NCBI GenBank assembly: GCA_018824145.1 | Contig: JAHJHC010000041.1 | Coordinates: forward strand, 1 to 55,211 | Source: Candidatus Omnitrophota bacterium | GTDB taxonomy: Bacteria; Omnitrophota; Gorgyraeia; Gorgyraeales; Gorgyraeaceae | Length of the DNA: 55,211 nt | Direction of reading: 5' to 3' | Shown here: positions 1-39,624 of the stretch, one piece after another | Layout: each line of letters begins with the position of its first letter | Numbering within the stretch: position 1 is the stretch's first letter | Translations under genes and position numbers: made by a program | The notes under the pieces: model-generated | The model's database searches: none | Seen by the model: the letters and a program-made list of their open reading frames with translations, nothing else | What the model was told of the DNA's origin: nothing

Positions 1-46
1 AGCAGGGAAGGCAGATTTACTCAGCAGTATTAGTCCGGATGTAATT

Positions 47-2700: not shown

Positions 2701-5700
2701 GGGTGCGGTAGTGGGCAGTAGTAGAGATTATTATAATGTTTTAGGAGTAGATAGGACTGCATCCAATAAGGAAATTAAGAGAGCCTATCGTAGAATAGCC
2801 AGAAGAACGCACCCTGATGTAAATCCAGGGAATCCGCAAGCAGAGGCGCGCTTTAGGGAAGCCAATGAAGCTTATGAAGTGTTGGGGGATGAAGAAAATA
2901 GAACACTATATGATAGATTAGGTCATGGTAGCTACTCCTCGACTCGCCGGAATCAATCAACCTCTTGGATGGGATGGCAGCCTCATTCCTCAGCAACACG
3001 AGGAAGTCAGCCAGGTTTTGATACAGGAGCTGCAGCTATGTATACCGTCGATCAACAAATGATGGATGAATCTAGGGATAGAGTTCGTCAACAGATGCGT
3101 GCAGCTATGGCTGGATTCAGTCAACAGATGTATGAAGCTACGGCTAGATTCGATCAACAGAAGGCTGCAGCTATGACGTATAGTTCAATGTGGAAATTTT
3201 TAGGAGGTGCTGGCAGTAGCGCTAATCATACCTCTCTTGAAAGTTTGGTTAAGAGATTATGGACATCTTGTACTGCCACTGGTTCAGGATACCGCGGCGT
3301 TGATCAAGAACTTATTTCAGGACTAGTCGGATACATAGATCTCCCGGAAGTACAGGAGGTATTAATGGCTGCATTCTTTCATGATATTCAACGCAGCATT
3401 AATCTTATATCTCGACTTGAAGTAGAGATGATTGCTTACATCTTTGATCTGGTTTCTGAAGTTAAAGATGACGATGTTTTAGATAATGTTGGCTCGATCT
3501 TCAGTGGACTGGGACCAGACTTGGCTTGGAGTATCTTTGTTTGCCAAGACGGAGAAGGACAAAGGATTATTTCAGATAGAAGTCTGGGAATAATATTTAA
3601 GAGGATGGAAGTCGCTTCTTTAGGAGAAGTGTTAAGAAGGGTTGATAGCAGCCTTGAAGCATATTCATTGGATTATTCTTTAGGGGAACAATTAACAAGG
3701 CGTGACATAGATCTTGTAGCAGAATTATTGAGTATTAAGCAAATTGCCCCTAAGTTAGTTGTGGATATCCTTGATTATTTTGACTCCAGAGGCGATTCGA
3801 TATGGTCAACGCAGGTTTTGGAGAGCATGGAATCTAGGCGCATCGCTGAGATAATGAATGCCTACCTTAGAAAGGTTTTCGGGAACACAATGAGATTATC
3901 AGACAGAGAACAAACCAGATGTGCAGGGATTCTAGGTAAATTACCTGGGGCTTTACTTTTCGATGTTCTCCCATTACTGGAAAGACGATTTTCTTGCACC
4001 ATGGCACCCGGTGAACCCGCCGAAAAAACTCCTCAACCTTCTCATTCATTCGCTGCAGGTTTGTTTGGACTAGGCGCAATTTTAAATAATGCCCAGGAGG
4101 CCCTGACAGGAGTTAATTCTAGTTCTATTTTATCAGGACTGACGCAACATGTGCCAGGCTTAGGCCCTTCCTCCATTAACTGGCAGACTCTAGCGGTGGG
4201 CGTGTTGATAGGTGGGGTGGTGGCGTTGTTGGTATTACTAGCTATTCAGGTGCGTCGGATTTATCAACGCAAGGCCGATAGGGAAGCAAGAGTTAATGAT
4301 ACGGAACAAGTCAGGGAGGTTATTGTCTACACCGCATCATCGGATGTGGAGTATTGCCTGTTTAGGGGGCCTACGCAGTTTCCTGTAGAAGGGCAGATAT
4401 TTGGAACTACACACTCTGTCAATCCAGATGAGCCCTTGCATCGAACACTTTATGCTTTGGGTGATATAGGTAGAAGCAGAGACGAAGGTTATTCATACAG
4501 TCAGATGAGGAGAGTTGACTCTAGCGGAGATAGTAGAACTTATTATTCTACAACTTCTAAAGATAGAGAGGAAGTTAGGGCTTTAGTATGTTCAGAGCCT
4601 GGACTTCTTGCTGAATTATTACGCCGTGAAGCAGCGGATCCAGACTACTGGGGTAAATGGAGGAGTGACTGGAGGATTACTATCCGCGATGTGATTGATG
4701 TCGTTGTTCGCCATGCAGAGATGGAAGATGAGCTTATTGAGGCATTACAGGGGTTAGGATTTAAGGATTGGCGGGAGTATATAAAACACTGGAGGAGCGA
4801 AGATGGCCGCCCTGATTCAGAAGGACTTTTTAGAGAGATAGCGAGATCCACTCATAGGTTTTTTATGGATTTTACTGATGGTGAAAACCCGGCATGTCCG
4901 GATTCGGTTATAAGAGAAGATGAAGGGACCGGATCTATATGTTTGCAATTTGGCGATGATGTTATTTCTCTTGTTGAAGCAGGTGTTTCTGTAGAGAAGA
5001 TGGAGTCGGATGGTGAGGTATATTATGTGGAACGTAAAATATCACCGACGAATATAGGAGGATTCTTTATCGTTATTCTCGGAGGTCTTTTAGCAGGCAT
5101 TGAAAATGATGTGAATGATGCACTTGATAGGCTGGATAATGCTTTGAAAAGGTATGAAGAACTTACGAAACATAAAGGATTTTCTTTCCAGTGGTACACT
5201 GCCGAAGGAGAGCCATGTAAAGAAACGAGATGGATAAAAGGAGAGGAAAAAGAAGGTTTCTGGGTATCGACCGTAGATTCAGGACTTTATGCAGCATTTG
5301 CAATACAAGCAATGGGACTCTTGAGGGAGATATCTTCAAGCTACCCTGGATATAGGGACAGGATAGATGGAATAGTACAACGGCTTGATAGGACAGTGCA
5401 GGAGATGCGATGGGATATATTGTATGATGGAAAGGATAATGGGGATAATAAAGCGTTTTTTACAGGAGGATTGCTTACTGGAGAAGGAGAATTTTTAATT
5501 CCAGAGAATGCTCATTACGATATGATTAGCGAGGTTTTGTTGGCCATTATAGTTGGTATACTTACTGGATATGTGCCAGAGGAATGCTTTACTCATCTTT
5601 GCAGATGGGTGGACCCGGAGAAAGTGCCTCTGCCAGAAGATTCTCATATTGGTACGTGGGATGGTACTACGTTTGCTTGGGCATTGTCGTATTTATTGAT

Positions 5701-8700
5701 AGATATATTAAAGACCCATCCATTAATGCAACAATCATTAAAACAGCTTGTTGTACTGCAGGATAGAGATGCGAGAGAAATGGGAGAACCTCTTGCGCGG
5801 TCTGAAAGTTGTTATTTGGTGCATGATGATAATGGTAGAGCTATTGAGAGGTATGGGGCTATAGGAAGTAGGCGTATAGCTGCAAATAATAGAGATTCAG
5901 AACTCTTGGCAGAAGGATTGCCAGCGTCGGCCTATTCAGCTGGGTTAACATTAGTAACGAGTCCTGTGTTTAAGGAAATAGCATATAAAGTCTACCTGGA
6001 TTTTATTTGGTATGTAGCACAGGGCAACTATGATCCGAAATATGGTTTCGGAGATTCAATGGATTCAGACAGACGTTTAGCTAATCATCAGGCATGGCTT
6101 TTTATGGCGTTATTGCCGTATATTCTTGAAAATAGGAAAATAATTGATGATGCTTTTCTTAGTCACCCGTGGAATCGTGAAGGAGCAATTGCCCAGGGAG
6201 ATTTTGTAGTAGGCTTATTAAATGGCGATACTGACGGAAGGGCAAGGCTTGTAATGGATGCGATGAAAGAGTGTGGAGTTATAACAGCCGAAGGGCGCTA
6301 CACAGTACCTCAAGGTGGAGAGATCAGGGCTGTTCAGGGCGAACTTCAAAAGGCGCTTGTTAGTAAAGGGATAGAAGACTTAGATGCTGGAGAGGTAATA
6401 GCCTTTGTGTTAAAGAGAACTCAAGAGAAAAAAGGTAGGCTTGATGGGGAAGAAGGTTTACTTTATAGAGACCCTCGAGAATTGCCGTTATTGCTAGGTA
6501 GAAATGAGGATGGAAGTATTATGAGGGAATGGGGAGAGGTCAGACAACCCGGAGGTGTAGCTGAAACCTTAGCAGCTGTTAGTGGTTTCAGTACCTTAAG
6601 CCAGTTGCCGAATTTTCTTGGAGGAGCTCAGGATTTTCCTGACATTTCATCTAGCTGGCCGACTCTCCAGGGTTTCTTTGAACAGGCATCTGACTTGGTG
6701 AGGTTGAATCAGGAAGGGGTATTGGCAATACTAGCAGTGTTGCTGGCGGTTGTTATAGTAACAGGCATAGTAATAGCAGCATTAATTCTAATAACTCGGG
6801 TCCTTCATACTTATAGGACCCGGGAGACTGAAACCCAGTCGGTTTCACCTGAAGAAAGGATTCCTTCTGGTGTATCTCTTGAGTTAAGGGACGGATTTTT
6901 AAGATTTTTAAGAGAGACATTTATTGAAGGTGTACATGTAACAGCTGATCGTATATGGCAGGAAATGCCTGAAGATCTTAGAGGGAGTATTCCAGAAGAA
7001 ATGATGCTGGTTATTTTGCAAGACGTTTCTCGCTCAGGTGATATTTTAAGATTGACTATTGAGGGAGTAGAAGTTTATCTTTTGATGGACCTGGAGCGTG
7101 TTACAAGTGAAAGCTCGATCATTAAGAGAATATTGGGAACGCCTTTTTATACTGGCACAGGCGGAGGTATGGCTGATATTCTGAGAAGCGGCCACTGGAC
7201 ATTTTTACCTCTAAATGTACGCGGTCGTTATCTAAGAGAGTTATATGCAGGCCTCACGTTAAAGGAACAGGCAGTTGTAGACTTATTTATTGACGCATAT
7301 GTAAGTATGGCAAGGACATTGCCTGAGGGATTAAGGGACCAAGTGCCAGAAGAGTTAAGAGAAAGTTATACTGATGACTTTCTCGATGATTTTCTTTCAG
7401 AGGAAAATCTGGAAAGGCTATGGCAAAAGAGGTGCCGTATCTTATCAGAAGAGGATTATAGTCAAGCACCAATGGATAAAGAAAAGTTCAAACAAAGTTT
7501 TGCTGCTTTAATAGAAGATACAGATAAAGTTAAGACGTTGCTTTCCGCATTAAATAAGGGATTTGAGTCTCTGCGCCAGGACATGCCCAATGTAAAGACC
7601 TATAGAGAAAGGGATGGGTTGGTCCATGGTATAGAAGAGTCAATGTATGCGGCGATTTCTGATTTAGTGGATATACAGTATCCATCAGGTTCCCCGCGGC
7701 CTGATTCGTTACGTATACCTAATAGGGAAGATGATTTTTACGGCAGGATGTGTCGTTTCTATGCAGAGATATTTGCCATGGCTTACGAGCCTACTTATGT
7801 AGCTAAGCCGACTTTTGCTTTATACTGTGTAGCAGAAAGGCTGAGGCAGGAGATATTTGGTTTGGAAGATTTTTTTGAGATGGAAAAATACAGGGCGAAT
7901 TCGGCAGCGTTGGAAATATTCTCTGCATTTCATGATGAGTTAAAACCGTTCTCAGGATGGGATATTCCTGAAGATGTTCAGAGCTCTCCTTTAGGTGCGT
8001 ATAGAGAAAAACTTCCAGTAGTGCAAAAGCTCTGGGATAGATACGGAGCAGATTTGACTCTGAAACAGCCTGATTATTATATACGCAGGTTGGTGTGGAT
8101 GCATAGAAAATTGGAGAGGTTGTCTTTGCTTTGTGCAATAGCAAATGCTATGGATTTCGGTGACCCTAAGTTCCAGCAAGAGGCGCAAGAAGCAGGGTTT
8201 GATGAAAAGGCATGGATGGTAGATAAGATAGAGGAGGGGCTTGAAAAAGGCTTTTACGAGAGCGACATTGATGAATTTTTTGAGATCGTAGGCGCTGCCA
8301 AATTGGAATTTGAAAGAGTAAAAGAAAATAATGGTTGGTCTGATGATGATGAGAGGATTGATGACAGCAAACGGCCCAAGATAATCATATTGACTGACAA
8401 TGCAGGCGAGACAGTCTTGGTCATGTTACTGGTTGGATTTTTATTAGCACTTGGTTTTAATGTTGTTATTGCCAGCCGCGATGTACCTGTAATAAATGAT
8501 ATGACTCGAGAGGATAGCAAATCATTACTCGAAGAATTCAGAGAAAGAGGATATTTTAAGAAATACGGCGAAGAGCGGCTTAAGGTGATTTCGTCCGGTG
8601 CAGCTATGTTTGCCACTCCACCTGCTGACTTAAGCACAGAGTTTTTAAGAGAATATAATGATGAAAATACTGTCTGTGTCTTTGCCATGGGACAGGGTAA

Positions 8701-11700
8701 TATGGAAAGTCTATGGCAGGGCGAGTGGCGTGAAAAAGCATGTATACATTGTTTGACACTAAAAGACTCGTTAAAAGTATGGGGCCTTCAAAACATCCCT
8801 TCTCACTCACCATTGCTGCTGGTTAATCTGCCTATACGACCAGAAGATATAATAATGGCAGATAAAGAGGTTTCAGGTGAGACAGTTTGTCTGAAAGACC
8901 GGCCAGACCTTATAGCAGTTTTAAGAGCAAAAGGTGTAACTATTATGGGTGACGAAAATATTTATATTTATCCTGAAGAATTCCAGGGACCTTTAGTAGA
9001 AGGCATAGCAGATTGTTTTGAATCAAAAGGGATTGTTTTAGATGCCTCGACTGGCCTGATTTATTTAGGCCGATGTGCTATAGGAAAAGATACGCATATA
9101 GACGGAAGAGGTGGTGTAGTCATTAGACGAGGGACAGCAGTTGGCAGAGCTTGCCGTGTTGCAAATGCAGTACTGATTAATGCCGAGATTGGAGATGGAG
9201 AAAAAGTTCGAAGAAGAGTGATTATAGGTAGAGGCCCAGATGAAAAGCGTTTTCGTCGTGGACGATCCGGAGAAGTTATGTCCACTATGGGTCTTGCGAC
9301 AATAGGCCTGCAGCCACTTTCTGTCAATAAAACCCTTTATAATAAACTCGTAGCTAACGGCGTTAGGATAGAGGGGGAACTCAGCACTATTTATATTGCT
9401 GATGGAGTTGAAATAGCGCCGGGTACAGTAATACATTCACACGTTGTCTTATTAGGCCAGACTGTAGTTGGACGAAATGTGGTGCTTAATCCGCTTGTGT
9501 ACTTAGTTGATACACAGGTAGAGGAAGAATGTAAGTTATCAAGGGTTACGGCAGCAAATTGCAGATTCTATCCAAGAGTTAACATTGATGATATTCCGTT
9601 ATTGCGGGACGAGCAGGTTTATCCTTATGGGAGTGTCCCTGAAGGAAGAGAGATCATTGGTTTTGTTGTTGATCCTGCGTTAGAGAAAGGTGAAAAAGGC
9701 ATAATGGGGGTAAGATGTAGAGACCGGGCTGCTCTTTCACGTTTTAGTCTAATTAGTAGGAGGGCCAGGCATTTATCTTTTGGTGAGATTAAAAGAGCAG
9801 GTGAAGAAGCGAAGGTAATCGATATGTTATTAGAGCAGGCAAGGTTGGGTGTTTATGTGGCCAGTGACTTGTTGTTAAGGTTGAATAAAGATAGGCAATT
9901 TACTGATGAGTTTGGCGATAGAATTATGGAAACGATTGAAATGGTCGTTAAAGACCCGATGTTAGATGACTTTACTTTACATCAGGTTAAGGCATTTATT
10001 GGACAGATTATCTGGGTCTATGCAAAGTCACCCTTTCAACTGATAAAGAGAGAAGAAGATGAAAAGGTAATAGAGGTTGCAGAGGTTTTAATAGGTACTC
10101 TAGATAAAACTCAGGATGCCGGAAAGAGGTTAGAGCTAGCCATAAAGATATCTGCATTGTCCAATATCAGTATATTTGACAGGTTTATACCAGAGGATGC
10201 GGATGATGAACTGAGTTTTGCAGTAAGAAAATTCAGCTCAGTTGTTGCTTCTATACGTGAGGGCAAAATTACGGATGAACTATTAAATTTAATTGCAAGT
10301 AAGGCGTACATAGCCGTGGATGAGGCAGAGGATATCGTCGAGCGATTACTGGTAGTGCCAGAAGGGGAGAGACAAAATAAGACCGTAATCTTCAATATAA
10401 ATAATGCCGGAGAGGTCATCTATAATATGGTTTTAGTACGGGAGGTCTTAAGACTCGGCTACAAGGTAGTTATTTCAGCTAACGAGGGGCCAATCGACGA
10501 TAATTACGATGTAAGAGATTTGAGCGAATTACTCCAGCATCCGAAAGTAAGAGAAGAGAACTTTTTAGGAGAGTTTCTAACTGATGGCAGAATAAGGATG
10601 GTTTCTAACGGGTCAGTATCTCCAGGTCTGGATTTGAGTGATCTAAGCAGGGAGTTTCACGGGATAGCTACTGATAAAGATACTATAATGATGATATCTG
10701 TGGGCTATTCCTTGGCAAGAGATGCTCTCACAGAAAGCTTACCTTTGGATGCAGCATATCTATGTTGGGCAAAAGATCTTAAAGACCCCAGTGTTTTTCA
10801 AAGAGCAGGTCTAGAAATTAAGAGGGGCTGGGCAATGGCCAGTTTTGTAGGTAAAGGTGGACAGACTGCCCTGAGTAGAAAGTTGTCTTTGGAGATAAGG
10901 CATCTTGTCTCTCAGGTGTTCGGGCTTATTGGCTTATCAAGATTAGTGCGAGAAATAGCTGAAGGCCATAGTATTGAAAGCGTTGCAGGATTAGATTTAA
11001 AAGATAGCTTGGTCAAAGCGCTAACCTTTTTCGCTAAATCAGGAGTATATAGCCAGGAAGAGATAAGCAGCTTTTTAACGCCAAAACTTATTTTTATAGA
11101 AGGAGATGAAGCTATTGATGTTGCCTATAGAAGACAATTAGAGCAAAGAAAAGAACTTCTATTTAGAATTAGAGATTGGCATGCTGAGTTCAATAAGCTT
11201 ATAAATGGCTTAATTAGCATAGAAACATATCTAAATGGGTTGGCTCAGGACAGAAAGAAACCAGATCCTGAGACAGTAATCGCAGTTATCCAGAGAAGGT
11301 TAGGTTTGTCTGGATCTGAAGTCGCGGCCTTACAAAAACGTATTACACCTTCATTGCACAAAAGAAGATATGATGTTCTTCTTTATGAGATCTTAATATT
11401 TGTCTTCTCTAACAGATATCCACGTATGACAACAATAGTAAATTTGAGAGAAGTAATAGAGGAATTCAGGGTCTACGAGATTCCTTTGGCAGTTGCTCTA
11501 CCTTATCTCAGCCGCACGGTTTCTGCATTGGCCGTATCTGAAAGTGAGTTTGAGAGTATCTTACAAGAAGAAGATTATTTTGATAAAGTTTTTGCTGGAA
11601 AGCTCGACGCTGCGATATCTGGTGATAGTAGGGTGTCTTTACAGGAGAGGTTAGTATCGGCTAAAAGTTATGTTAGAAACCATATTGTTACTGATAGAAG

Positions 11701-14700
11701 CAGGAGTCCAAGAGAATATCATTTTGCAGTAAGGATGCTTTTTGTCGGCCTTCTTGGAGTTAAGAAAGCCCCTGTAGGGATAAAAGGAGTAGATAAAACT
11801 TTAGCTGATTTAATTACACCTGATGAGGTTAGTTGCTATTCGTTGGAAGAGCTCGGCGGTATTTTAGGTCTTGCCTTTAGGTCAGGTGCAAGTGTGACAA
11901 AATTAGAAGAGCGCATGGGGCTACCCCAGTATACAAAACTTACTCAGGGAATCGTAGCATTAGTCGATGATGTAAAATGGCTGGTAGTAGATCGTGTAAA
12001 GACGTTAACCGAAAAAGGCAGGCCAGCAATAGAGGCGTTTTTAAAAGATACGGCAGTACCAGTATATGGCCGTGCCATGTTTTTATTTGGCATTTTTAGA
12101 TTAGCGTCAGGTGAAGGATCAAGGTTGAGTGCCGAAAATTGGACTGATTGGGTTGAAAGTGGGATACTGGAAGATTGGGAATACGATTGTTTAAATGAAG
12201 GTTCAGAGATTTTAGCAGGAAGTGAGCGAGGTGATTTTAGTATAGACTCCTCTACTAGTTGGCACGCCTTTATGGCTAATGAGCAATATCCTGCTGAATA
12301 TAAGATAGTCTTATTGGAATGTGTAATTAAAGAAGCTGAAGGGAAAGAAGATACTCTTTTACATTTGGAAGCGCTCTGCACCATGTTAAAGATATATACG
12401 GATTCCCAAAATACAGTTAGTTTAGAACGGGTCAGCCAAGAGATTATTAGCCTTGTCTATGGATTGGATATAGAGAGGGTGCGCTCTTTATTACCCGGAA
12501 TGAGCGATGTTACAAGAAACAACACTATTTTAATAATAGAAAACCGCATGAGATTTTATGAACTTATGTTTAACCGGATGGGTAAGTGGCGTAGAAAAAT
12601 GCCGGTTTTAGCCGAATTCTTAAGACATGCCTTGTTACTAAGAGAAGCATATTTAAGCTTAGGTGGAGCAGGAATAGAAAAAGTTGATGGGGTAGTTGAT
12701 AGAGTAACAGAGGTACTTATAGAGCTGGATGAGACAAATTTAAAAGTTCTTTTTCAGCAAGATACATTTAAAGGAGAACCTGGGATAAAGATTATGCTGC
12801 TTTCGATACTTAGAGAAATAGACCTGGGCTTTCTCAATGGAGTGTTGATTAGCAGTACCCTGACAGGTGATATTAGGATTCCTCTTTTAACTGACCCGAG
12901 CCCAGAAGTTCGGGAGTTAGTTACAGAGATTCTTAGCCAGACAGATAGAGGTAGGCAAGCACTAGAGTCTATTGGGCAGGCTGAGGCTCCTAATTTCGAT
13001 GATGATGATGGGGCTATTGTTGAAGATAGAGCAGCAGGGGTCATGATGGGCGTGGGTGCCATTGGAGGAGTGCAGGATTTTCTTAGCCGGGGTGTGAAGG
13101 ATTTTATTGTGCAGGGACAGGACGTTTTTCCGGATATTTTATCTTTCAACTGGTGGATGTGGGTTGTTGGTTTTGGTGCGTTGTTTGTTGGATTTTTGAT
13201 TTTAAGGCCTTATTTACAGCAGCATAATTATAAGCTAGTCCCGGCAATTAGAGATTATCTTAGGGATATGATGGGGCAAAGACTACGTCTTGCTGGAATA
13301 TGGGGTGACGGAATAAAAACTATAAAGGCTGTTTTTATTGGGCCTGAAAAGAAAACGGTTTCTTCTACTGGTTTAGTAGGGATTACAGTGGCAGCAGTCT
13401 TATTAACCGCAGGCCTTGCCGGGCCTGTAGCGGTCGGGGCTTTAGGTCTTTTGGTGGCATTAGGCGTAGTTTCTGTAATATATTCACGCGCTCCGCCAAT
13501 TAGAAGATTCGCTTTGATTGGAATACCTCTCGTCTTTTTAGTCTTACCATTGTTTGCCGCACAGCCTGTCCTATCAGCACCATTATCTGATATTCCCTCT
13601 TCTTTGACCCAGATATCCTCATTGATGAATTTTGATTGGCCATCCTGGGGCAATAGGCTATTGAAAATAACATTGAAATTTTCCATAGTACTTATTGCAT
13701 TGCGCATCTATTGGGTTGTAGCACAACATTCGTTAGCTGTTTTACAGCGTTCGTCAAAGGTTGAAATACCTAAGCCACGGTATAGAGCAGATATTACAGT
13801 TACTGGCACACCCGGTTTCGAACATATAGATCCATTTGACGCAATGGTGCCGCTACCTCCTTCCTTTCCCGGGGAGAGCAGGTGGAGGGTGGAGGGAGAT
13901 GTACAAGAATTGTTGAATGAGACTGGGATACGGCTCGCTGGCGGACGACGAATAGTCTGGGGAATAGAGGTTAAAGCTCTTGTTGATCTGGCATTTAAGA
14001 GAAAGGGATTAGAGGCTCATCGAATCCGTATCAGGGGGTGGCAGGGAATTGGGCTTGTAATTGTGGTTATTAGGGGGTTATTGTTGGTTGGTGTTGGTGT
14101 GTTATTAGCTCTCGGAATCAAATGGGGATTTACCCAGATTGACCAGCTGTTACCTCTTGCCGGACAAGCAGGGATAAACACTCTGACTTTGGTGTCGCTA
14201 GGCAGTACAGTGTTGACGGCCTTACCCCTTGGAGTGGCAATGATGGCGGCTGAAGATGTAGAAAATACACGCCTGAAGGCACGAGCGGGAACAAGTAGAG
14301 GAGGAGCACCAGATAAGCATTCCAGCGGGCAGATGGCATGGGTAAAGGAATGGCTGGAAACACATGGAGTTGAGGTAACGCCGAATAAATGGTTAAAGAC
14401 CGAAGAAGATATTACTCTACTTGGGTTACTTGGAGTAGTCGCGGGCGTAGGGATTATTTTCGTGGCTAGTAATCTTTTCTCACTCGGCTTTTTAAGCGGA
14501 ATAACTGCTTTAGGCTTGCCATTGGCTTTAGTGATAGGAAGTATTTTGTATTTTCCATTTTCACGCTTCATAGCGTTTATAGGCGGTCACTTTTTTGACG
14601 GCTGGAGACATGGGTTAAAGAATATGGGTGCGGCAGCCAATATTAGTGCAGTGGGAGTAGCTATAGGATTTATTGTTAATGGTTTAATTTTAGGTGGAGT

Positions 14701-20700: not shown

Positions 20701-23700
20701 TATTGTCCCATATATTATTGACTTTAGCGCTTTTCTATATAGTTTTACACTTACCAATATTCAGCCATTTATTGCATCCATAGGCGTTCTTACATTTCTA
20801 TTGTCTTGTGTTGCGATTTTTTATCGAATCGGGAAAATATTATTTGGTCCCGATGCGGCATCAAAGAAATTTGACCGGTGCACGACTGTTTTGAGACGGG
20901 TCAGTCGAGTTACGTTTTTGCTTGTAGTTCCCGCCCTATCTTTAATTACGGCGTTTGTTATATTGATTCTATGGTTTGCTCCAGAATTTCTTACTGTACC
21001 AGTAAGTTCTCTCCTTATGATGTTGCTGGAAAGATTGGCTTTGATAGGTATAAACAGCCCTACCTTGATGTCGCTGGGCAGTACAGTGTTGACTGCCTTA
21101 CCCATAGGAGTGGCAATGGTTGTAGGAGATAGGGCTTTCACTGAAGATACGTCTGGAGCGGATGGTAGTAGAGTGGCGCCTGGCTCGACGGATTCTGCTT
21201 ACGATCCATTAGTGGCTACAGGGTATTTAGCTGCAAAGCTTACTCAAGAAGAGCGACTGGTATTTATTGGACTCCTTCGTGGATGGGTTGATGAACGACT
21301 TAAAGAAGAAATAGGTCTGGAATATACAACGTTGAGCCTCATATTAGGTACCCTCAACAATAAGCTTCTTTGGGAAGGTGGTTCACCACGGGAGAAGCTC
21401 ACCAAAGCAGGTATTTTAGGAATGGTAAAATCACCTTTGGAAACCAAGGAACAAGAAATACTCGAGGGATTCCTGCGTGGATTAAGGTATGAAGAAATAG
21501 CCAGAACGTATTACATAGCACTAAAATCGATAAGTTACTACGCTTCTGGTATAAGAGGGAAAATTCGACTAGAAAGAGAAACTGAATCCGAACATAAAAT
21601 GACAATTTTAAAGCTATTTTTAGCACGCGGGGTAATACCATCCAGGGGCATATATTGCAAGGTCACTGTTGAAATTCATCGCTGGCTCATTGAACATGGG
21701 TTTCTTGTATATCCTTTGAGGCCGGCTAGAGAGCAGCAAGGAAGTGATGTCCTGACTGCTGGGAAGCCACCTTTGAGTGCCATGGAGGCGCTTGTTCTTT
21801 ATTGGACTGTGCATGGGATATTATCCGATGGTGAAATGGCTGCGAGGTATGGAGTGAGTGAGGACAATATAAGTGTTTACCGTGCTACATGTAAGGAAAA
21901 AGTGTTTCCATTTCATCAAGGTTCGTTAAGGAGTAAACTCAGGCAGAATGGTCTACTGGAAGAAGGTGAAGCTGCTCAACGATTATTAGGTTTTAGTCTT
22001 CCTCCAGCGGTCCACAGGCAATTGTATTCGGGTCAATTAAGGATTCTTGAGGTCTTGAATCAGAGTCCACATCTTTCCAGAGAAGCCCTATCTAGATTGA
22101 CGGGGTTAGAACCTAATAGTGTAAGAACATATATATTTGGATTGTGCAAAGTTTTTGGGGTACCAAAGGGGCTTGTGCCTACTAAACGGAGAGATGCCCT
22201 CGTTCCTGCTGTATTTGGATTAGCAGATAGGAATATTTCTTCGACTAGAGATTCTGAAATAAAAGCATCTACAAGAAGAAGAACTGGTGCTAAAGAATAT
22301 GATGATGATTTCATAAGAAGAAAAACAAACGCAATGATTATGGCTTTGGGTGGCTCCAGTGTGCTCAATCAGGTACAGCCATTTGCTGAGGAGGCTACTA
22401 AACAATGGGTTCAGGGAATCCCTAACTTGGCAATCGTATTAGGGGCGCTGGCACTTGCTGTTGGTGTTGTTTGGCTGGTCAAAAATCTCCTCGACGACTA
22501 TACGAATCTTTGGCTGCCAGAGAAGATAGTGACTTTGAACGTAGAGATTCCTGTCGAGGTGGATGGTAAGATGCAATGGGTGGAGAAGAAAAGGAAGTAT
22601 GAATTAGTCAGACAGGTTGAACAAAGTGGATTTGCTGCCCAGGTTTGGGAGGCAAGGGTAGAGGGTACTGAGGAGAGAGTAGCCTTAAAGGTATTTCGAC
22701 CAATTGGCAAAAATGGAAAGATTCATAGGCAAAGTCGCATGTTGGCATTTCAGGATGCTAGGCCAAGCAGGGAAGAGGCTCAGATGGCAGTTTCTATGCG
22801 AAAGATTGCAGGTATTCTTACAAAATATCCTGAAATATACGAGCTTATGCTTGAGGAAGCAAGCGCGATTTATGGAGGAGAAAATAATGACGTAATGGGA
22901 AAACTGCAAGAGTTAAGAGATGGGATTGGGCCATCTCTTGTAACGCAGGCTAATGCTTATGGTTGGTCAGATGCACATAATGCATCATTCCTTGAATTAG
23001 AATGGGAAGATAATGTGAATACTGCACGGTATGGTTATTTTTCAGGCCTGCTTGATGAGGATATGCGTCTTCAAGCTCTCTTTATGCGTGCTTTTTGCAG
23101 GTTGCTTGAGAATATTGGTGCAGAGGGGTATATACCTCAGACTTATATAGGTAAGACTTTATTTGGTACATCTGAGCCAATAGGTATAAAGTATCAATTA
23201 GGCATAACAGCAGCAATGTTGGTTTCTTTAGCTACATTTTTCCTTACAAATTCTTGGCCTGTAACATTATTGCTTTCTGTCACAGTTCTTTTTGTCCTTG
23301 GTCATTCTGTCGGTGGTTCGTTTTTCTCCTGGGATAACATTTTCTGGAGTGGAAAACGAGGAATCGGTTTAAAGACTCTTGACCTTGAGCCAGGACTTCC
23401 GCGCGGTGGACCATTAGGTGGTATCCTTTGGCCAACATTTGTCCCGAGACTCTCTATTGCAGGTTTAGTAGTTTTGGCATCATTTTTTAGTGGGATTCCA
23501 TTTTATGTGGCTGGGTGTTGTGCCTTAGTCTTTTTGATTGTTACTTCGCCTGGATGGTTATTTCCTTTTGAGTTTGGTGCTGTAAGTAAAATGAAGAAGG
23601 CAGGTTTTGGTCCTAATTTAGGGGCGATGGATGTTGATGCTGCAGAGAGACATATCTCGGGTAATTATCAGGTTGCAGGAAATTATGATATTGATGAAGA

Positions 23701-26700
23701 AAAAATAAGCATGCCGCTTAGAGATTATCGTGAACTATTCTGGCACCTTGACCAATATAGAGAAGCACAAGAAGCTAATTCACGACGTCAGATTAATATC
23801 TGGAGTTATGGCTTAGATTTTATCCGTGACCAGGCACGTCGGGAAGCTATACGCGAGTTCAATATACAATACTGGCTGGATGAAGGTAGGATTTCCAGTA
23901 GCATGGCTACTTATCTGCAAAGTTGTCCTGCTCCAATATATTTCTTATATTGGTGTGAGAGTCATATACCTATAGTAGGCCGTGTGGTTGGCAATAGAGA
24001 CTATCGAGCTTCAATGCGTCGTTTATTTACTGACAGCGATTTCTTTAAAGAACGCTGGCATGCTTACCGTCAGGCAAAACTTGATAAGATGCATGCCCAA
24101 GGTAGGCTAGGAAAATCTTTATATAATAGCCTTTACCCAGTACTAGAAGTCAATGAATGGGTTGAATGGCCGAATAACCGCCAGTTTATCTTAAATGTAG
24201 CGCTTAGTTACTGTACTCCAAGCCCTATCCATCACTTTTTAGTTGACAGAACGTATCGGCAGGAGGCAGTGGATAAGTTCACCAGCCAAGTTTCTATTAT
24301 GGTAGGTCCTGTTGTAGGAATAGGGCTTTCGTTATTGATATGGCCGCTACTTCCTTCCAGGGAATTCTTTTGGGCACTGGTGGTTTCAGTTATTGGGAGT
24401 GTCGTTGGAGCAGTAGTTAGTATGAGATTTTCAGATATGAAGTTCTTAACGGAACGTTCTGAAGAGGCTGAAGAAGATTTCAAAGATTGGGTCAAGGAAG
24501 GAGCAGAACAGTATAGGATTACTGAATCTTGGCAGGAGAAATTATTGGGGTTACGGAATGAAAAAGTTATTCGTGATTATATTAAGATATATGGTGTGCA
24601 GTTAGCATCTAAACTTGTCGTCTGGTTATTGCGGATAATTTTAATGGGTAGCATATTTGTAATTACCGGTGAATTCAATGTTCTTTCTGGACTCTGGGCC
24701 TTTGCGATACCTAGTGCTATTTGGAGGACTGTTACTACTTTAATTGTTATACAAGATTATAGTTGGTGGGGCCGTTTGAGGTGTTTTTCTGTTGCTTTAC
24801 TATTTGGTATTCTTCCTATACCTGGATTAACGTATCTTACAATGCCTTTTCAGATGCTGGTTGGTCTTATATTTTTCCCAGAGCGTGACAAGTTGGCCTT
24901 CCTACTTATCTTTGAATGGGAGTCTTTGATCGAAAAAGCCTGGGGTAAAGTGCCTGGTTGGGGCAGGACGACCTTAGCGCTATATTATTGGAACCTATAT
25001 TTGGCCAGGATACCAATTATGTTTATTAAGAAGGTCTTTCGTAGAGATAAAAGTAAAGAAGTTGAATTAACGTATCCTAGTATTATTAGGGCAGATAGCA
25101 ATACACCAATTTTGACCCACCACATCACACCCGGAGAATTATATGTAACTTCTATAGCTACACTTATCCTTGGTCTTGTTCCATTTGTCTTAAAGGCTGC
25201 GTGTGGATGGGATGTCCCTGATATAGTTCCGTACGTAGCGCTGGTTTTGGGATTAGGGTTGTCAGGGTTTTTGGTGAGTTTGGCACGATCTATTCGTCGT
25301 ACACTTGATAATTTACCGAATACTGAGATACGTGCCGGGCCTATTGATATCTTGCTTAAGAAAAAATCAGAACAAGCAGAGCTTATTCCTCAATTCACTC
25401 AATCTGACCTTGTAAGACATGATGCAAAAGACCACATCGCCTACTATAGTCCAAAAGACAAAGCTATCCACATTAACCCTAAAGCACTTGCCCAATACAG
25501 AAACTCCATCCAACACCTAATCTGGATAAAGGAAAGAACCCAGCAGGGATTAAGATTACCTAGAGCTTTAAATGAGATTATATCTTATACATGGATGGTT
25601 TTATGTATTGTGCCGGTAGTGTTATACCATGGTGTATATCTGAGTATTTATTTTTCAATAATAGCAAGAAGAGAGGCACGACGTGAACGTGAACGTGAGG
25701 AAAAATTGATGGGCCGGCTTGATGAAGCTTTTGATGCCCTTTATAGTCACACACCTGTTATTGAAGGAAGGCAAACAAAGAGCGTTAAACATGCGAAAAG
25801 CTCTCTTCGTCGGTTAGTAGATAATAAGTGGAAAGGAGGAGATGCTGATAAGGTGTTAAGTTCTGAGCAACTTAATGAGCTTGAGAGAATGGCTTTTCTA
25901 ATAGAGAGATTTCGTACGTATAACGAGTCAAGATTCTTTAGAGGAAAGACCCCAATTATTTTAAATTTTGAAGAAGCAAGACTATTAGCTTTGATTGCAT
26001 GGTATCCTGAAGAAGATTTGAATATATCAGGCTTAGCTGAGAAGTTCGGTGAACCAAAGGACACAGTGGTGGGAATGGTTCGTGTTCTGAATAGGTATTT
26101 TGGTATTGAGGATTTGGCACGCAGAGTAGAGTTAAAGGAATTAAGAAAAAAATTACGAATGAATCTTGGTATAAGAGGTGAAGCACTAATTATTGGACAT
26201 GGGGTCTTGCCTAGTGAACTACCACAGACAGTAGCGGAAATTGACCCAGGATTCGGCGAATTAGCACGGATCTTCTCGGTGAAGCTCAGAGCACATCGAG
26301 AAGCAGGGATTGATCGGCCTTTTATAGTAATGGTGAAAGGAGCAGGTGGGGTAGGCAAGACGACATTGATTCGTGTAATGAAAGAACGTCTGGAAGAGAC
26401 TGGATTACAAGTCGCTGCACCAGATAAGGTGGCGAGTTGGGATATATTAGGTTACCGACCGTGGCCTAGCTATCAGTACATAGAAGAACAACATAGAGAT
26501 GCTGATGTAATATTATGTGAAGCCACAGATGTGTTACCACCAGCAGGTGATTACGTTGAATTTTTAGATTTGTTTGTTGAAGTTAGATCAGAAAGATCTG
26601 TCCGGAGAAAGAGAATGAGAGCTATGGGAGTTTCTGAACCAGAGACAGAACGGATAGTGAATTCTCGAGTAGCAGCTAATTATGAAGACCATCCGCCCGA

Positions 26701-29700
26701 TGTTGTCATTGTCAACGAGAAACCGGATAAGACATGGTTTAGAGCGGAAGAAATAGACAAGTTGATTGGAGACAATGTAAAATTCATTACGTCTATCCAA
26801 AGCCAGGGTGAAGTATCAGGAATATCTCAAGATACATTCTTACCTTTGGCTCAAAAGCTTCTGAAAGAACCAGCGGATAGAGTAGAAAAATTACAAGCTC
26901 TACTAAATACTGAGTTCCAAACCCTGATCAATCAACTTTCTGAGAGATTAGGCAGTGAACGGGCAATATGGCATATCTTGATGCGTTGGAACCAGACAGC
27001 AAGATTAGAAGGGGCAAAAGAGCTATCTGTTATTTTAGCTGGCAAGTGGTACCAAGAATTGGCAGCTATGGTAGCGGAGATCGAGTCGTTAAAAGCTAAA
27101 AGGATGCAAGTAGAAGGGGGCGATGTCAAAGGTGTTACAGGCTTACGGACTAGAACAGAAGATGAACACCACTTTATGATGTGGTCAGAAGATCCTGACC
27201 GTAATGGCACTAGTCCACATAAGGCAGAAGAATTCAGGTTTGACCCTGGAGATGTGCATATAGGAGATACAAACTATACATTTAGGAAAGAGCGGGGACC
27301 TACCTTTGAAGGTTTTCCAGAAACATCATCTAAAGATCGAAGATACCTTAACCGTTATTTGAAGAATTTGATTAAAGAGGTTAAAGCAGGTAGGCCTGTG
27401 CTTGTAGTTGTTTCTCCCCAGACAGCTGAGCAGATGAGAGAGTGGGCCAAAATTGGCTGGCTTAAACGAAGAGTAGAGCTACTTCTACAGGATGCCATTA
27501 TCGTAGAAAAGGAACTTCACTATGACTCTGTAACTGAATATTACACTGAGGCACAGAAAAGACTTGCCGCGAATAGTGGTCAGTCTGATAAACCTCCTTT
27601 AGTGGTAGGTATTGGTATGGGTACGGTTTGTGACTGGTCGAAAGTCATCGGTCATAAACTCGGAGTCAATGTTCATCTTATTGTGACTGCGACTTCAACG
27701 AATGCACCTTTTACTCCTAATATACTAATACGTGACGGGTCGGGAGATGATTTCCGGCAGTTTAGTTATATGACAGGTGCAGCTGAACAAGTCATTGCTG
27801 ATGCATCTTTAATGAGACTTAACCCGAGAGGTAATATTGCAGGGGCTGGGGATTTATTCAGTGGTTGGGTAGCGTTGCTCGATTGGATGTTAGCGGTTCA
27901 TCTTGGCGTTACTGAGATGACTGAGGAGGAGCGAGCTATATTTGAAGAAGCCCATGTAGTGTTAGAAGATTTGAGCTCTCTTGCTACTATCATTAAGGAT
28001 AATACTCCTAAAGGCATTGAAGAATCAGCGAGACTTGCTATGCGAATATCAGCGCTTATGAGCCGTGCGAGAAATGCAAGGCCAAAGGCTGGAAGCGATC
28101 ACTGCGTTGCCTACAGTATGGAGGTTCAGACACAGGGTAGAAAAATGCTTCATGGAGAGCAGGTTGGCATCTCAACTCTATTAATGCTTGCACTGTATCA
28201 TATTGATAAGGAAAACCTTGAAAGCGGAGATTTTCCCGTAGATCAACTTAACGAGCAATTTTTACAAGAACGAGGCCCATCTGCTATTGATGACCTTAAG
28301 GTATTCTTTGAGAGACTAGAAGAAAGACCTGAACTGTTTCCAAGTCTTGATGAAGCGCGAGACATGGTTCGAGATTTAGGACTTCCTGTATCACTGGGCG
28401 CCCTGGCTTTGGTGGATGGAGAGGAGGGTATGAGTGTTATTGAAGCCGTTGAATCTTTAGTTAAAACCCAGCTTGACGATCGTCGGTTCACTTATCTAAA
28501 CGTCTTTAAGATTACCGAAGAAAAAACTATCAGGGCTGTCGCAATGGTTCTAGGCTTGACACCTGAGGAGGTCTTAGCCAGACAGACAGATGAATTACTA
28601 TCAACCAGTGTACCAGAGGAAATTCCAGCTCCTTATAGAGACATACCTGATGCCTCTGATATTCCAGGATCCATTGATGATATTGCCAATAGAATAATCA
28701 GTGAATGCAGAGAAGGTAACTACGATTCATTGCATCTTGATTGGTCTAAGAAGATGTTCTTTTACCAGGAGTTTATAAAAGAGGCTGCAGCAATAAATAC
28801 TGCCATTAAGAGAATTATAGCATTTCCAGCAGAAGAACAAAGTCAATTTGCTAACTTCTCGGGTTTTCTTGAGGCTGCCATTGCAGCAAGACTTGATATG
28901 ATTAAGCGTTATCAAGCACCATTATCTACCAAAGGAGAGAATGCCGTAAGGTTACTTGAAAAGGCTGTACAGACAGAATCTATGGATCAGTATGTTAATG
29001 CTTATAGCACTCGTACTGAACTGCTCGGAGATGTATTAAAAACAGTTATGCTTCCTCCTGCTATGTGGTTTGTGCCTTTATTGGAAGGGGAAAGGAAGAA
29101 GATATATGAAGATAATATAAGGCAGAAAGAAGTAAAAGTAGCTGAAATAAGAAGAGAACAGAGTAGAGTTGTAGCTACGGATGGATGTTCTAGTCAATGC
29201 GACCACTGTGACATGGCAGCCACCTTTAGGGTTGTTTCTATGCCGTGGATATGGCTTGAACAGGCAAAAGATGAAGTAGGAGCACCAGAGGTTATGACCT
29301 ACAGGAATGACTTTTTTGTAGATTATTACGATATTATTTATGATACAGATGCGAGTGATGTTGTAGATTTATTTAATCCAGAAACTATATTTTCTGCTGT
29401 ATTTGTACCAGGTTCTGTAACGGATAGAGCTTTAGGGAGATTATTAGGGTCAGGAGAGGGGAAGAGAACATTTGTTTTAAGCGTTGCGCCGAGTGCTTGG
29501 ATGCGTAAAGTTGGCGTAGAGAAGTATTGTGAATATGCAGTGGCGATTAGAAATAGAATTACCGAATATAACGATATACAAAGAGGAGATAGGCCTAGAG
29601 TTACTTTCGCTTGTTGGTTGTTTTTATTTCAACGTAAAGACGAACCGGATTTGATTGATACTATAAGAACCTATATCTATCAAGGCATGAAATCTGAGGA

Positions 29701-30556
29701 GATTACCTTAGCATGGTTGGATCGACTGGGTAGATTTAAGCAATTAGAAAGATCTGGTGAGATAGATTCAAATACAGTAGTAAATGAAAATATGCCACCT
29801 GGGATGAACTTTGAAATATGCGATCTTGGACGACGCATGTTTCTTGCTGATGGACAAGTTGCGCAAGGCACAGTGGTTTCTGGAAGGCAGTTTTCGTTCG
29901 AAACTATCGAGGGATTAGGTCCTATAGGAAGAGAACGTATAAACTGCCCTTATTGCAAATCCTTGGATTGCAGAGGTGACACTGAAAAAGGATGCCCAGG
30001 ACGAGAAGAGTTTTTTGCTGCACAGGGTTTATCTCCTACTGGCGGCAGGCCAGCTGTTGTTCAAGCTGCAGGTTTCTTTGGGTTTGGTGGACTAGGTCGA
30101 TTTTTAGGGGAGACGCAAGTGAGTCCCTTGCAGGACTTCTTTACGCAAGGTATACAACCAGCCTTATCATGGCTTGGTTCTCATGAGGGGCTGTGGGTTA
30201 TTGTTGGGATTGGTGCGTTTGTTGTTGCAGGAGGGTTACTGATTTTAGGTTATTTGGCAGTTAGAAGAGGCTATCTAAAAATCAGAAAAATCAGGGACAC
30301 ATCCCAATTTCCTCATGGGGATTTACAACGGGAAAATTGGGCCCCGTCTCTAGTTCTCCCTTGGGTTGGATTCCCTACGGTTGGACTGATGTTGATTACT
30401 GGGATGTCAATTAAAAGTTTACCTCTTTTATTAATTGGGACACTTTTTGCTATCGGCCTTATGATTTTTATGCAGCGCGAAGAGATTAATTCGGGGACAG
30501 GTGACGAGCTTGATGGAATCATAAAAGGACACAAAAAAAATAGAGTGTGCTTGTAA
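47..30556 (+). CDS. Giant multi-domain polytopic membrane protein (>=10,169 aa); probably 5'-truncated by the window edge
   Basis: Single stop-free frame for 30.5 kb in AT-rich DNA. All other-frame and antisense ORFs inside it are short. Several recognisable domain motifs are in frame (J-domain HPD, LuxR HTHs, Walker A, DUF89 DNAGE, CxxxCxxC). The same frame is also open from nt 2 to the ATG at 47, and there is no GGAGG-type RBS before nt 47. Confidence 0.9.
2726..2930 (+). other. DnaJ-type J-domain inside the giant ORF
   Basis: [67 protein letters not shown] aligns almost position-for-position with the canonical J-domain, including the HPD tripeptide. Confidence 0.92.
4121..4250 (+). repeat. 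Junction module type B, copy at 4.1 kb ([10 protein letters not shown] ... W ... TM)
   Basis: [43 protein letters not shown]. The stretch tctattttatcaggactgacgcaacatgtgcca differs at only 2 of 33 nt from 20105-20137. Confidence 0.8.
5056..6180 (+). other. (alpha/alpha)6-barrel glucoamylase-like / DUF3131-GH144-like (beta-1,2-glucanase-type) region
   Basis: The ordered motifs [19 protein letters not shown] ... [26 protein letters not shown] ... [16 protein letters not shown] ... [10 protein letters not shown] ... [11 protein letters not shown] ... YGFGDSMD (6041-6058) ... [14 protein letters not shown] resemble the conserved helix-loop pattern of glucoamylase-like (alpha/alpha)6 domains. By-eye only. 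Confidence 0.45.
7740..8830 (+). other. DUF89/ARMT1-like (damage-control phosphatase family) module, motifs largely intact
   Basis: [17 protein letters not shown] (DNAGE at 8396-8410), VINDMT, and [10 protein letters not shown] (8690-8710) match the DUF89 pattern DNaGE ... ND.T ... KGqgNyE. A helical region of about 200 aa precedes it. Confidence 0.6.
9040..9610 (+). other. Left-handed beta-helix (hexapeptide-repeat, acyltransferase/GlmU-C-like) region
   Basis: Runs with hexad periodicity of small or aliphatic residues: [50 protein letters not shown] and [53 protein letters not shown]. Confidence 0.6.
9745..10840 (+). other. Second, degenerate DUF89-like module
   Basis: Same layout and spacing as the first copy but with altered motifs: [18 protein letters not shown] (NNAGE at 10400-10414), PIDDNYD instead of ND.T, and [11 protein letters not shown] instead of GQGN.E. 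Confidence 0.4.
14168..14258 (+). repeat. Conserved TM element type C, copy 1 ([14 protein letters not shown])
   Basis: [30 protein letters not shown]. The core gtcgctaggcagtacagtgttgacggccttacccc..ggagtggcaatg is nearly identical to 21067-21117. Confidence 0.85.
15905..16790 (+). other. Array of four tandem LuxR/GerE-type helix-turn-helix units
   Basis: Four consecutive ~63-aa units: [52 protein letters not shown]; [43 protein letters not shown]; [52 protein letters not shown]; [45 protein letters not shown]. Each matches L(T/S)xRExxVLxLxaxGxtNxEIAxxLxISxxTVxxHxxxIxxKLgv. Confidence 0.85.
17735..18135 (+). other. Array of two LuxR/GerE-type HTH units
   Basis: [54 protein letters not shown] and [53 protein letters not shown]. 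Confidence 0.7.
18209..18385 (+). repeat. Junction module type A, copy 1 ([10 protein letters not shown]...QPF...KQWV.GIP + TM)
   Basis: [48 protein letters not shown]. About four-fifths of nucleotides are identical to 22328-22477 in a hand alignment over ~150 nt. Confidence 0.85.
20102..20270 (+). repeat. Junction module type B, copy at 20.1 kb
   Basis: [24 protein letters not shown]...[21 protein letters not shown]. The window start ([29 protein letters not shown], nt 2-110) looks like a third, partial copy. Confidence 0.8.
21043..21133 (+). repeat. Conserved TM element type C, copy 2
   Basis: [30 protein letters not shown]. About 5 mismatches in 51 nt versus copy 1 by hand alignment. Confidence 0.85.
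21239..22175 (+). other. Array of about four divergent LuxR/GerE-like HTH units
   Basis: [43 protein letters not shown]; [43 protein letters not shown]; [44 protein letters not shown]; [47 protein letters not shown]. The pattern is retained, but several consensus residues are lost. Confidence 0.5.
22328..22492 (+). repeat. Junction module type A, copy 2
   Basis: [48 protein letters not shown]. Paralogous to 18209-18385 at both protein and nucleotide level. Confidence 0.85.
22590..23020 (+). other. ABC1/UbiB-like atypical-kinase N-lobe motif
   Basis: [31 protein letters not shown] resembles the ABC1/UbiB signature (aaSiaQVh.A.l..G..VAVKVqrP); the Lys is at 22688-22690. The downstream [10 protein letters not shown] resembles rVLtmEwi.G. 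The rest of a kinase fold is not clear. Confidence 0.35.
26320..26730 (+). other. P-loop nucleoside/nucleotide-kinase-like module (Udk/PRK-type layout)
   Basis: Walker A GAGGVGKT at 26339-26362 follows a hydrophobic strand (FIVMVK). [12 protein letters not shown] is a Walker-B-like strand. [20 protein letters not shown] resembles the Udk/PRK 'ifvd.d.d.rl.RRi.Rd' segment. Confidence 0.55.
27225..28510 (+). other. Glycerol-1-phosphate dehydrogenase / glycerol dehydrogenase-like (Fe-ADH/DHQS superfamily) module
   Basis: [10 protein letters not shown] ... [40 protein letters not shown] ... [36 protein letters not shown] ... [11 protein letters not shown] ... [14 protein letters not shown] (28151-28168). 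The order and spacing match the G1PDH/GldA pattern (GGG..D.aK ... vPT.aS.dg ... D...i..aP......aG.GD......DW ... H ... HGe.Vg). Confidence 0.55.
29150..30000 (+). other. Radical-SAM-like module (CxxxCxxC) with a C-terminal Cys cluster
   Basis: [18 protein letters not shown] contains C-x3-C-x2-C at 29186-29209 in a typical strand-loop context. About 250 aa later, [21 protein letters not shown] gives C-x2-C-x4-C-x7-C. No other radical-SAM motif could be verified by eye. Confidence 0.35.
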
Positions 30557-32924: not shown

Positions 32925-32942
32925 AAAAGAGGATGATTGAAA

Positions 32943-39621: not shown

Positions 39622-39624
39622 TAA

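Follow-up and report, generated by a model that had tools for sequence, protein, structure and literature searches.

Where do the soluble modules of a giant membrane protein lie with respect to the membrane that threads through them? The question is raised by a giant open reading frame (ORF) of Candidatus Omnitrophota bacterium, which we analysed in a stretch of 55,211 nucleotides (nt) (GenBank assembly GCA_018824145.1, contig JAHJHC010000041.1, positions 1 to 55,211 of the forward strand), hereafter the window. Two preprints (bioRxiv 10.1101/2023.11.21.568195 and 10.64898/2026.06.07.730766) describe Omnitrophota giant proteins of the 'Archaeovorin' type, which exceed 10,000 amino acids (aa) and carry many transmembrane (TM) helices among metabolic and regulatory domains of cytoplasmic types. 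The authors of both point to the implausible extracellular placement of the metabolic domains, raise the possibility of overlooked TM segments and regard cleavage as possible; carbohydrate-degradation genes are reported near the giant genes.

In the ORF studied here, some 48-63 hydrophobic segments (by a simple hydrophobicity scan) are interspersed with soluble modules. At seven internal junctions (J1-J7), each coming after a soluble module of 400-1550 aa, the passage from module to membrane is made of the same four parts in the same order: a hydrophobic leg that is uncharged and Gly-rich, then a loop (18-53 aa), a strong TM helix, and finally a tail rich in Lys and Arg (K/R) that usually contains Tyr or Trp as well. 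We propose, giving it about an even chance, that the junctions are procoat-like membrane tethers, each a helical hairpin, and that these tethers would hold all modules on the cytoplasmic face. The ORF and its junctions are as follows.

nt 2..30556, forward strand: giant ORF, 10,169 aa counted from the first ATG at nt 47.
nt 4049..4297 (aa 1335-1417), forward strand: J1, after the DnaJ module; leg 4049-4084, 34-aa loop 4085-4186 including a Trp, TM 4187-4252, basic tail 4253-4297.
nt 6563..6841 (aa 2173-2265), forward strand: J2, after the GH94-like module; leg 6563-6625, 30-aa loop 6626-6715 beginning with AQDF, 27-aa TM 6716-6796, tail RVLHTYRTR 6797-6841.
nt 13031..13252 (aa 4329-4402), forward strand: J3, after the DUF89/LbH mega-module; leg 13031-13072, 27-aa loop 13073-13153 beginning with QDF and ending with NW, TM 13154-13207, weak tail PYLQQHNYK 13208-13252.
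nt 18206..18415 (aa 6054-6123), forward strand: J4, after the LuxR module; leg 18206-18250, 18-aa loop 18251-18304, TM 18305-18370, tail WQRWMRKR 18371-18415.
nt 19994..20311 (aa 6650-6755), forward strand: J5; leg 19994-20044, 53-aa loop 20045-20203 including a Trp, TM 20204-20266, tail QKLSAFLRH 20267-20311.
nt 22325..22525 (aa 7427-7493), forward strand: J6, after a helix-turn-helix (HTH) module; leg 22325-22369, 18-aa loop 22370-22423, TM 22424-22480, weak tail KNLLDDYTN 22481-22525.
nt 30053..30301 (aa 10003-10085), forward strand: J7; leg 30053-30109, 27-aa loop 30110-30190 including LQDF...SW, TM 30191-30256, tail 30257-30301.
nt 50..151, forward strand: J8, at the window start; only a TM helix (aa 2-20) and a basic tail lie in the window; K/R number zero over the 15 aa preceding the helix and four over the 15 aa following it.

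The reading frame of the giant ORF is open up to base 2, with no upstream stop in the window, so the gene start, and with it the N-terminal part of the protein, probably lies outside the window. A preliminary description of this DNA had reported at least eight module boundaries sharing one grammar, and listed eight. Seven of these, J1-J7, were recovered with the positions and residues quoted there, all inside one ORF; the eighth is represented by its TM helix and basic tail only, and the ungapped match of this helix to that of J7 is borderline, its score of 44 being no higher than the null reaches (maximum 43-44).

The distribution of charge around the junction helices is uniform. When the 15 aa before and the 15 aa after each TM are compared, K/R are fewer on the N-terminal side in all eight cases (totals 4 versus 29; sign test p = 0.004), so all eight helices are predicted to be N-out/C-in according to the positive-inside rule. 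No other TM separates the strong helices of J1, J2 and J3, the intervening hydrophobic stretches being located within the GH94-like module (aa 1667 and 1826) and within the DUF89 module (aa 2790). Successive helices of this same orientation therefore require an extra outward crossing, for which the Gly-rich leg is the only candidate. The legs are uncharged stretches of 15-22 aa with a hydrophobic core of 12-17 aa, usually ending in GG[SA]; such properties are marginal for a TM helix and typical of the h-region of a signal peptide. K/R account for 9/207 loop residues (4.3%), compared with 12.7% in the soluble modules (p = 4e-5), as expected of a translocated loop, and the loops are acidic. The tails, conversely, are enriched in K/R (26/105 residues, 25%; p = 5e-4). 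Each junction is thus laid out like a hairpin anchor, with two hydrophobic segments, a short K/R-poor loop between them and a basic tail behind them. Finally, the modules on either side of the junctions are of cytoplasmic types: DnaJ, LuxR/GerE HTH, DUF89, P-loop, GH94-like, and an NAD(P)-dependent module resembling glycerol-1-phosphate dehydrogenase (G1PDH-like).

In the hairpin mechanism, the Gly-rich leg would carry the chain from the cytoplasm to the periplasm, the short, K/R-poor and acidic loop, with its GG-x-Q[DP]F motif and interfacial Trp, would be the sole translocated part, and the strong TM helix would return the chain to the cytoplasm, where the basic and aromatic tail would pin it to the membrane face. 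The large cytoplasmic-type modules would be strung along the inner membrane face and never exported. Marginally hydrophobic helices can insert when helped by a neighbouring TM, and we infer that the weak leg spans the membrane in this manner, its insertion being aided by the adjacent strong helix.

Segments resembling the legs are rare elsewhere in the protein. A blind scan for uncharged, Gly-rich hydrophobic 12-mers outside canonical TMs found seven, five of which are junction legs; one at aa 6198-6210 has the look of a weak second leg belonging to a different hairpin, and two further borderline segments (free energy, dG19, of 3.6-3.9) are located inside soluble modules. Other transitions from module to membrane are also paired, with alternating charge bias (aa 5160/5204, 5671/5704, 6161/6198, 7718/7739 and 8084/8107), and some of the transitions outside the junctions show a weak Gly-rich second leg (aa 5704-5722, 6198-6210 and 871-889). 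TMs also occur mostly in pairs in an independent giant ORF, that of the metagenomic locus L001 described below. AlphaFold2 returned the same three helices for J7 and for J1, in which a leg of ~21 aa and a long TM are separated by a short helix in the loop.

One of these regions has an arrangement of its own. At 16841-16921 of the window (aa 5599-5625) lies a partial junction-like element similar to the J4/J6 leg with xPF added; behind it come ~45 soluble residues, a TM of opposite charge bias and the weak Gly-rich leg at aa 5704-5722. This region may be a hairpin assembled in reverse order.

Several points weigh against the hairpin tether. The topology was derived from a simple analysis of hydrophobicity and charge. 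The legs, taken alone, are poor TM candidates, their Hessa-scale dG summed over 19 residues being +6 to +10 kcal/mol and their cores only 12-17 aa long; Arg or Lys stands just before the leg in only 4/7 junctions and is not enriched there overall (11/105); and the AlphaFold2 confidence for the leg is low (predicted local distance difference test, pLDDT, ~50-58). In addition, a standalone relative of the C-terminal module (L002, below) has a signal-peptide-like start, indicating that this type of module can be exported elsewhere, at odds with a purely cytoplasmic role, and no orthologue of the giant protein was found in any of the collections searched.

Do the junctions share more than a layout? 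A short signature is common to five of them. Over the 10,169 aa, six copies of the tripeptide Q[DP]F are present where ~1.2 are expected from composition, and 5/6 copies fall within the 207 loop residues (binomial p = 2e-8, for a motif defined post hoc). As GG-x(1-14)-Q[DP]F, the motif occurs five times, solely in J2, J3, J4, J6 and J7 (mean of 0.11 over 2000 shuffles), and not once in 15,000 aa of comparison proteins; these motif tests were set after seeing the data, and J4 and J6 are not mutually independent. A Trp lies at most 12 aa before the TM in 6/7 junctions, compared with 9/39 of the other TMs (Fisher p = 0.003), and the pre-TM segments of the junctions score higher in Smith-Waterman comparisons with one another (median 28) than with 55 pre-TM segments taken from elsewhere in the protein (median 20; Mann-Whitney p = 3e-6). 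At the DNA level, J2 and J3 have in common the string GGAGGAG..CAGGATTTTC.T. J1 and J5 do without Q[DP]F, and J3 and J6 have a weak basic cluster. The shared grammar of the preliminary description is thus partly confirmed: there is a real recurring layout with a short signature common to five sites, and a single homologous family is not demonstrable.

Clear homology is limited to two pairs, J1/J5 (z = 10.6) and J4/J6 (z = 25). The second pair agrees with the earlier statement that the module at 22320-22500 is a copy of that at 18200-18390, J6 being a paralogue of J4. Pairwise z-scores reach ~3.2-3.3 for J1/J7, J2/J3, J2/J7 and J3/J7. A single junction family is not supported. Leave-one-out hidden Markov models (HMMs) fail to detect the omitted junction above the local-shuffle background, with the sole exception of J4, which is found via J6, and hhalign comparisons of the subgroups J4/J6, J1/J5 and J2/J3/J7 (pre-TM parts) give probabilities of 0.1-2.5%. 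In an ungapped self-scan, only J1/J5, J4/J6, a pair at aa 4708/7000 (the E elements, below) and the LuxR repeats exceed the null. The junctions match none of the Pfam or NCBIfam models, and a junction alignment found nothing at E <= 10 in 5.8 billion proteins; the earlier remark that no named family covers this element is therefore upheld.

Some junctions are linked more closely at the level of DNA. The dispersed repeats of highest identity in the 30-kb gene (D1, D6 and D9) are all located at module/membrane junctions. J4 and J6 share 145 nt at 81% identity (18200-18344 versus 22319-22463), and J1 and J5 share 44 nt at 86% identity (4113-4156 versus 20094-20137). D6 corresponds to a further pair, the E elements, which had escaped the earlier list.

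nt 14168..14257 (aa 4708-4737), forward strand: E element copy 1, a marginal hydrophobic leg closing a TM block ahead of a soluble HTH-containing module.
nt 21044..21133 (aa 7000-7029), forward strand: E element copy 2, likewise a marginal hydrophobic leg closing a TM block ahead of a soluble HTH-containing module.

The two E elements are identical at 20/30 aa and share 73 nt at 85% identity. In all three pairs, identical amino acids are encoded by the same codon more often than codon usage predicts: 22/29 versus 9.9 expected for J4/J6 (p = 6e-6), 9/11 versus 3.1 for J1/J5 (p = 3e-4), and 15/19 versus 5.5 for the E elements (p = 1e-5). The flanks of the paired patches are unrelated. The simplest account of the three patches would be recent copying of short tracts, by intragenic recombination or gene conversion, and such copying or homogenisation within the gene would be why two pairs of junctions are nearly identical. 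We considered two other sources of this similarity and rejected both: a larger segmental duplication, because the flanks are dissimilar except for the LuxR domains, and RNA structure as the cause of codon identity, as folding z-scores range from -0.7 to +1.3 and there is no Rfam match.

A comparable patch is present in the giant ORF of L001, which carries a junction motif of its own, DGS..QPLQNK.LG, at aa 3761-3779 and 6501-6519 (frame-2 translation), ~50 aa before two TMs. Its two copies are identical at 46/57 nt and use the same codon at 10/12 positions. With this one replicate, junction-patch copying may be general among giant ORFs.

Relatives of the protein outside the window are few. A search with aa 6040-7120 (1,081 aa, comprising J4, a soluble module, J5, a TM block and the second E element) against 1.84 billion cluster representatives gave 0 matches, and one with aa 1330-2262 gave a single match, to a distant GT36/GH94-like protein. 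The C-terminal module of the giant ORF (aa 9560-10000, window 28724-30046), which carries a CxxxCxxC motif as well as a C-terminal Cys cluster and has no Pfam match, has three distant relatives at 31-35% identity. One (P0001) is a 34%-identical fragment from a metagenome-assembled genome (MAG), the only match in a search with the C-terminal 610 aa. The other two came from a scan of metagenomes, which yielded two loci, while a scan of GTDB genomes with the same module found no locus. In L001 (contig Ga0247841_10000675), the module forms part of a second giant ORF, which takes up all of the 21-kb locus; in L002 (3414-5084), it forms a standalone 556-aa homologue with a signal-peptide-like N-terminal segment (MRKKILSFMTKLLITFVLPVFCITPCVFA). 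Such a start is odd beside a radical-SAM-like Cys motif. Given its recurrence in L001, P0001 and L002, the CxxxCxxC module appears to be an uncharacterised mobile module.

No junction was found in these relatives. With the junction HMM, neither P0001 nor L001 yields a J cassette, L001 differing in this respect from the giant ORF studied here, and L002, read by eye, has none past the homologous module. The homology of the C-terminal module to its relatives stops at QGLSP[ST]GG, three residues ahead of the J7 leg, so the J7 cassette begins exactly at the module boundary. An identical sequence, with the downstream genes, is present in the Logan assembly of run SRR2544004 (L004), where the contig begins in the J7 region (window ~30128) and retains only the last 142 codons of the giant gene; this break may reflect repeated junction DNA.

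The hairpin tether has to be weighed against other explanations of the same elements. If each TM crossed the membrane only once, the modules would lie on alternating sides, and the Gly-rich element and loop would form a juxtamembrane segment on the outer face. Among three readings, the preliminary description had suggested a membrane re-entry cassette that places modules on alternating sides; a membrane-insertion cassette stands, but the alternation does not, since the same charge asymmetry is found at all eight TMs (N-out/C-in), J1, J2 and J3 follow in succession without a TM in between, and the flanking modules are of cytoplasmic types, so that DnaJ, LuxR HTH, DUF89, P-loop and NAD(P)-dehydrogenase-like modules would need an extracellular function. 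Moreover, no start-transfer segment follows any of the basic tails. Single-pass junctions thus strike us as very unlikely, although the shortness and polarity of the legs keep them from being predicted as TM helices, the L002 relative of the C-terminal module has its signal-peptide-like N-terminus, and many domains of giant Omnitrophota proteins are reported as predicted to be extracellular (bioRxiv 10.1101/2023.11.21.568195). A second reading of the preliminary description likened the junctions to C-terminal sorting signals (LPXTG/sortase, PEP-CTERM/exosortase or GlyGly-CTERM/rhombosortase) and hence to processing sites of a polyprotein. They would be cut by a sortase-like enzyme, or by signal peptidase I after GG[SA], to release separately anchored proteins, which would be compatible with hairpin insertion. 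The formal order of motif, TM helix and basic cluster is indeed that of sorting signals, the legs have an h-region-like length, GG plus small residues are found in 6/7 legs, the J2 and J3 loops start near Q[DP]F straight after GG[AV], and proteolytic cleavage of giant bacterial proteins has been proposed (bioRxiv 10.1101/2023.11.21.568195). Yet no sorting-signal model of NCBIfam or Pfam gives a match at E <= 10, the nearest related entry being NPXTG (E = 0.71, on the TM helix alone); the GG...Q[DP]F motif does not adjoin the TM but precedes it by 18-53 aa; and the C-terminal location that sorting signals require is lacking, six of the seven sites (J1-J6) being internal and J7 being followed by ~85 residues that include more hydrophobic segments. 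The enzyme that should accompany such signals, a sortase, exosortase, rhombosortase or rhomboid, was likewise not found: Pfam scans of the giant ORF (in ten pieces) and of the 14 downstream genes in the 55-kb window revealed no sortase, rhomboid, peptidase or C39 domain. The small residues that end the Gly-rich segment are, besides, expected from composition alone, and we regard processing sites as unlikely. Double-glycine leaders have the consensus LSxxELxxIxGG, are amphipathic and are partnered by a C39 peptidase; this candidate was rejected as well, as the residues upstream of GG (e.g. in J4) are unlike the consensus by eye and the same Pfam scans hold no C39 domain. By analogy with flavivirus polyproteins, the legs could also be internal signal peptides, with signal peptidase I cleaving behind GG[SA] at the periplasmic face, which would yield N-terminally anchored, cytoplasm-facing proteins, with the cassette spreading within giant genes by short-tract recombination; we consider this scenario quite improbable.

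The resemblance among junctions could instead be convergent or compositional. A flexible linker followed by a stop-transfer TM tends towards Gly, an interfacial Trp and a basic tail, Trp belts and positive-inside tails being generic features of membrane proteins, and only J1/J5 and J4/J6 would then be true paralogues within an eight-fold grammar that has no specific function. The failure of the leave-one-out HMMs, the non-significant hhalign comparisons between subgroups, pairwise z-scores mostly below 3.5 and the fact that the sites were picked by eye are all in line with this. Against it, GG-x(1-14)-Q[DP]F is limited to five junctions, occurring neither elsewhere in the protein nor in the comparison proteins, J2 and J3 share the DNA string given above, and non-canonical Gly-rich legs stand almost exclusively ahead of junction TMs; convergence also leaves unsolved the orientation of consecutive N-out/C-in helices, and it seems to us unlikely. 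Alternatively, the junctions might matter mainly as DNA, as short homologous tracts for an intragenic recombination that adds, loses or swaps modules, with their protein features secondary. The location of D1, D6 and D9, the excess of identical codons, the unrelated flanks, the independent patch in the unrelated giant ORF of L001 and the break of a public assembly of the same sequence within the J7 region all fit this view, and the third reading of the preliminary description, which took the junctions for recombination substrates, holds for J4/J6, J1/J5 and the E pair. It holds, however, for these three short patches only: J2, J3 and J7 have no long DNA partner, tracts of 44-145 nt at 81-86% identity are poor substrates for efficient homologous recombination, and the charge asymmetry and K/R-poor loops indicate selection on the polypeptide. 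A primarily DNA-level role is for these reasons doubtful, and in our judgement distinctly improbable.

As to the modules that the proposed hairpin tethers would connect, the Pfam domains of the giant ORF include DnaJ, two DUF89/ARMT1-like domains plus LbH (left-handed beta-helix), at least seven LuxR/GerE HTH domains and a P-loop domain. A G1PDH-like module is also present, and aa 1411-2170 are weakly similar (E = 5e-6) to the GH94-type domain of cyclic beta-1,2-glucan synthase (PDB 8RF0, 8RF9). Three further observations concern the modules themselves. At 3031-3175 of the window, after the DnaJ domain, there are ~4 tandem repeats of 33 nt (11 aa) rich in Q-Q-M; at 19169-19354, a unit of 93 nt (31 aa) is tandemly duplicated with 76% DNA identity; and the module after J6 (window 22490-23240, aa ~7483-7730) contains a protein-kinase-like VALKVF stretch and has no Pfam match. 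Directly downstream of the giant gene, a co-oriented glycan-utilisation cluster occupies 30721-48513 of the window, with genes for a sugar ABC transporter, ROK, GH42, two GH94 phosphorylases, GH57, an outer-membrane barrel and two GH99/GH71-like proteins; the downstream genes also include a two-component system and an FG-GAP protein. The closest genome match of one of the GH94 genes is a candidate division FCPU426 MAG (62% identity).

Giant bacterial proteins with tens to hundreds of TMs are now widely reported, and their predicted topologies often give enzymes that are clearly cytoplasmic an extracellular location. Such predictions may systematically overlook weak, Gly-rich legs of the signal-peptide-like type; were that so, a sensible topology, with modules pinned to the inner membrane face, would be regained by taking each leg as the opening half of a hairpin. 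The hairpin tether is in this sense a testable lead, a concrete fix for the topology problem of giant proteins that comes from one orphan protein. The junctions are also places to look for cleavage. Together with the E elements, they hold the only recent DNA-level copying detected in the gene, which bears on how such genes grow.

How does this arrangement compare with known systems? The protein resembles those of the 'Archaeovorin' type in exceeding 10,000 aa, in its numerous TM helices and many enzyme domains, and in the carbohydrate-degradation genes nearby. It differs in that Pfam finds no SecA-DEAD, C39 or S8 domain in its visible 10,169 aa, the N-terminal part probably being outside the window, and term searches of the two preprints (bioRxiv 10.1101/2023.11.21.568195 and 10.64898/2026.06.07.730766) revealed no recurring junction motif. 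Cyclic beta-1,2-glucan synthase (Cgs/NdvB; PDB 8RF0, 8RF9) is likewise a very large inner-membrane protein whose cytoplasmic catalytic modules, including one of GH94 type, are tethered by TMs. At ~2,800 aa, however, it lacks a recurring junction motif and has a few canonical TM helices, and its similarity to the giant ORF is limited to ~60-90 residues of one soluble module.

The closest structural parallel that we draw is with phage procoats. M13 procoat inserts as a hairpin in which a short acidic loop joins a signal-peptide leg to a TM anchor, and hairpins of the M13/Pf3 type have a basic C-terminal tail and insert with the assistance of YidC/Sec. The junctions have the same order of elements: a short hydrophobic leg with small residues at its end comes first, an acidic loop of ~20-50 aa that is poor in K/R comes next, and the strong TM and the basic tail follow. 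The loop is predicted to be the only part translocated in them, as it is in procoat. In the giant ORF, by contrast, the unit is internal, repeated at least seven times and flanked by large modules (400-1550 aa), and it has no sequence similarity to procoat. Hairpin membrane tethers and TM-threaded giant proteins are thus both already known, and what is new here is the recurring hairpin-type junctions.

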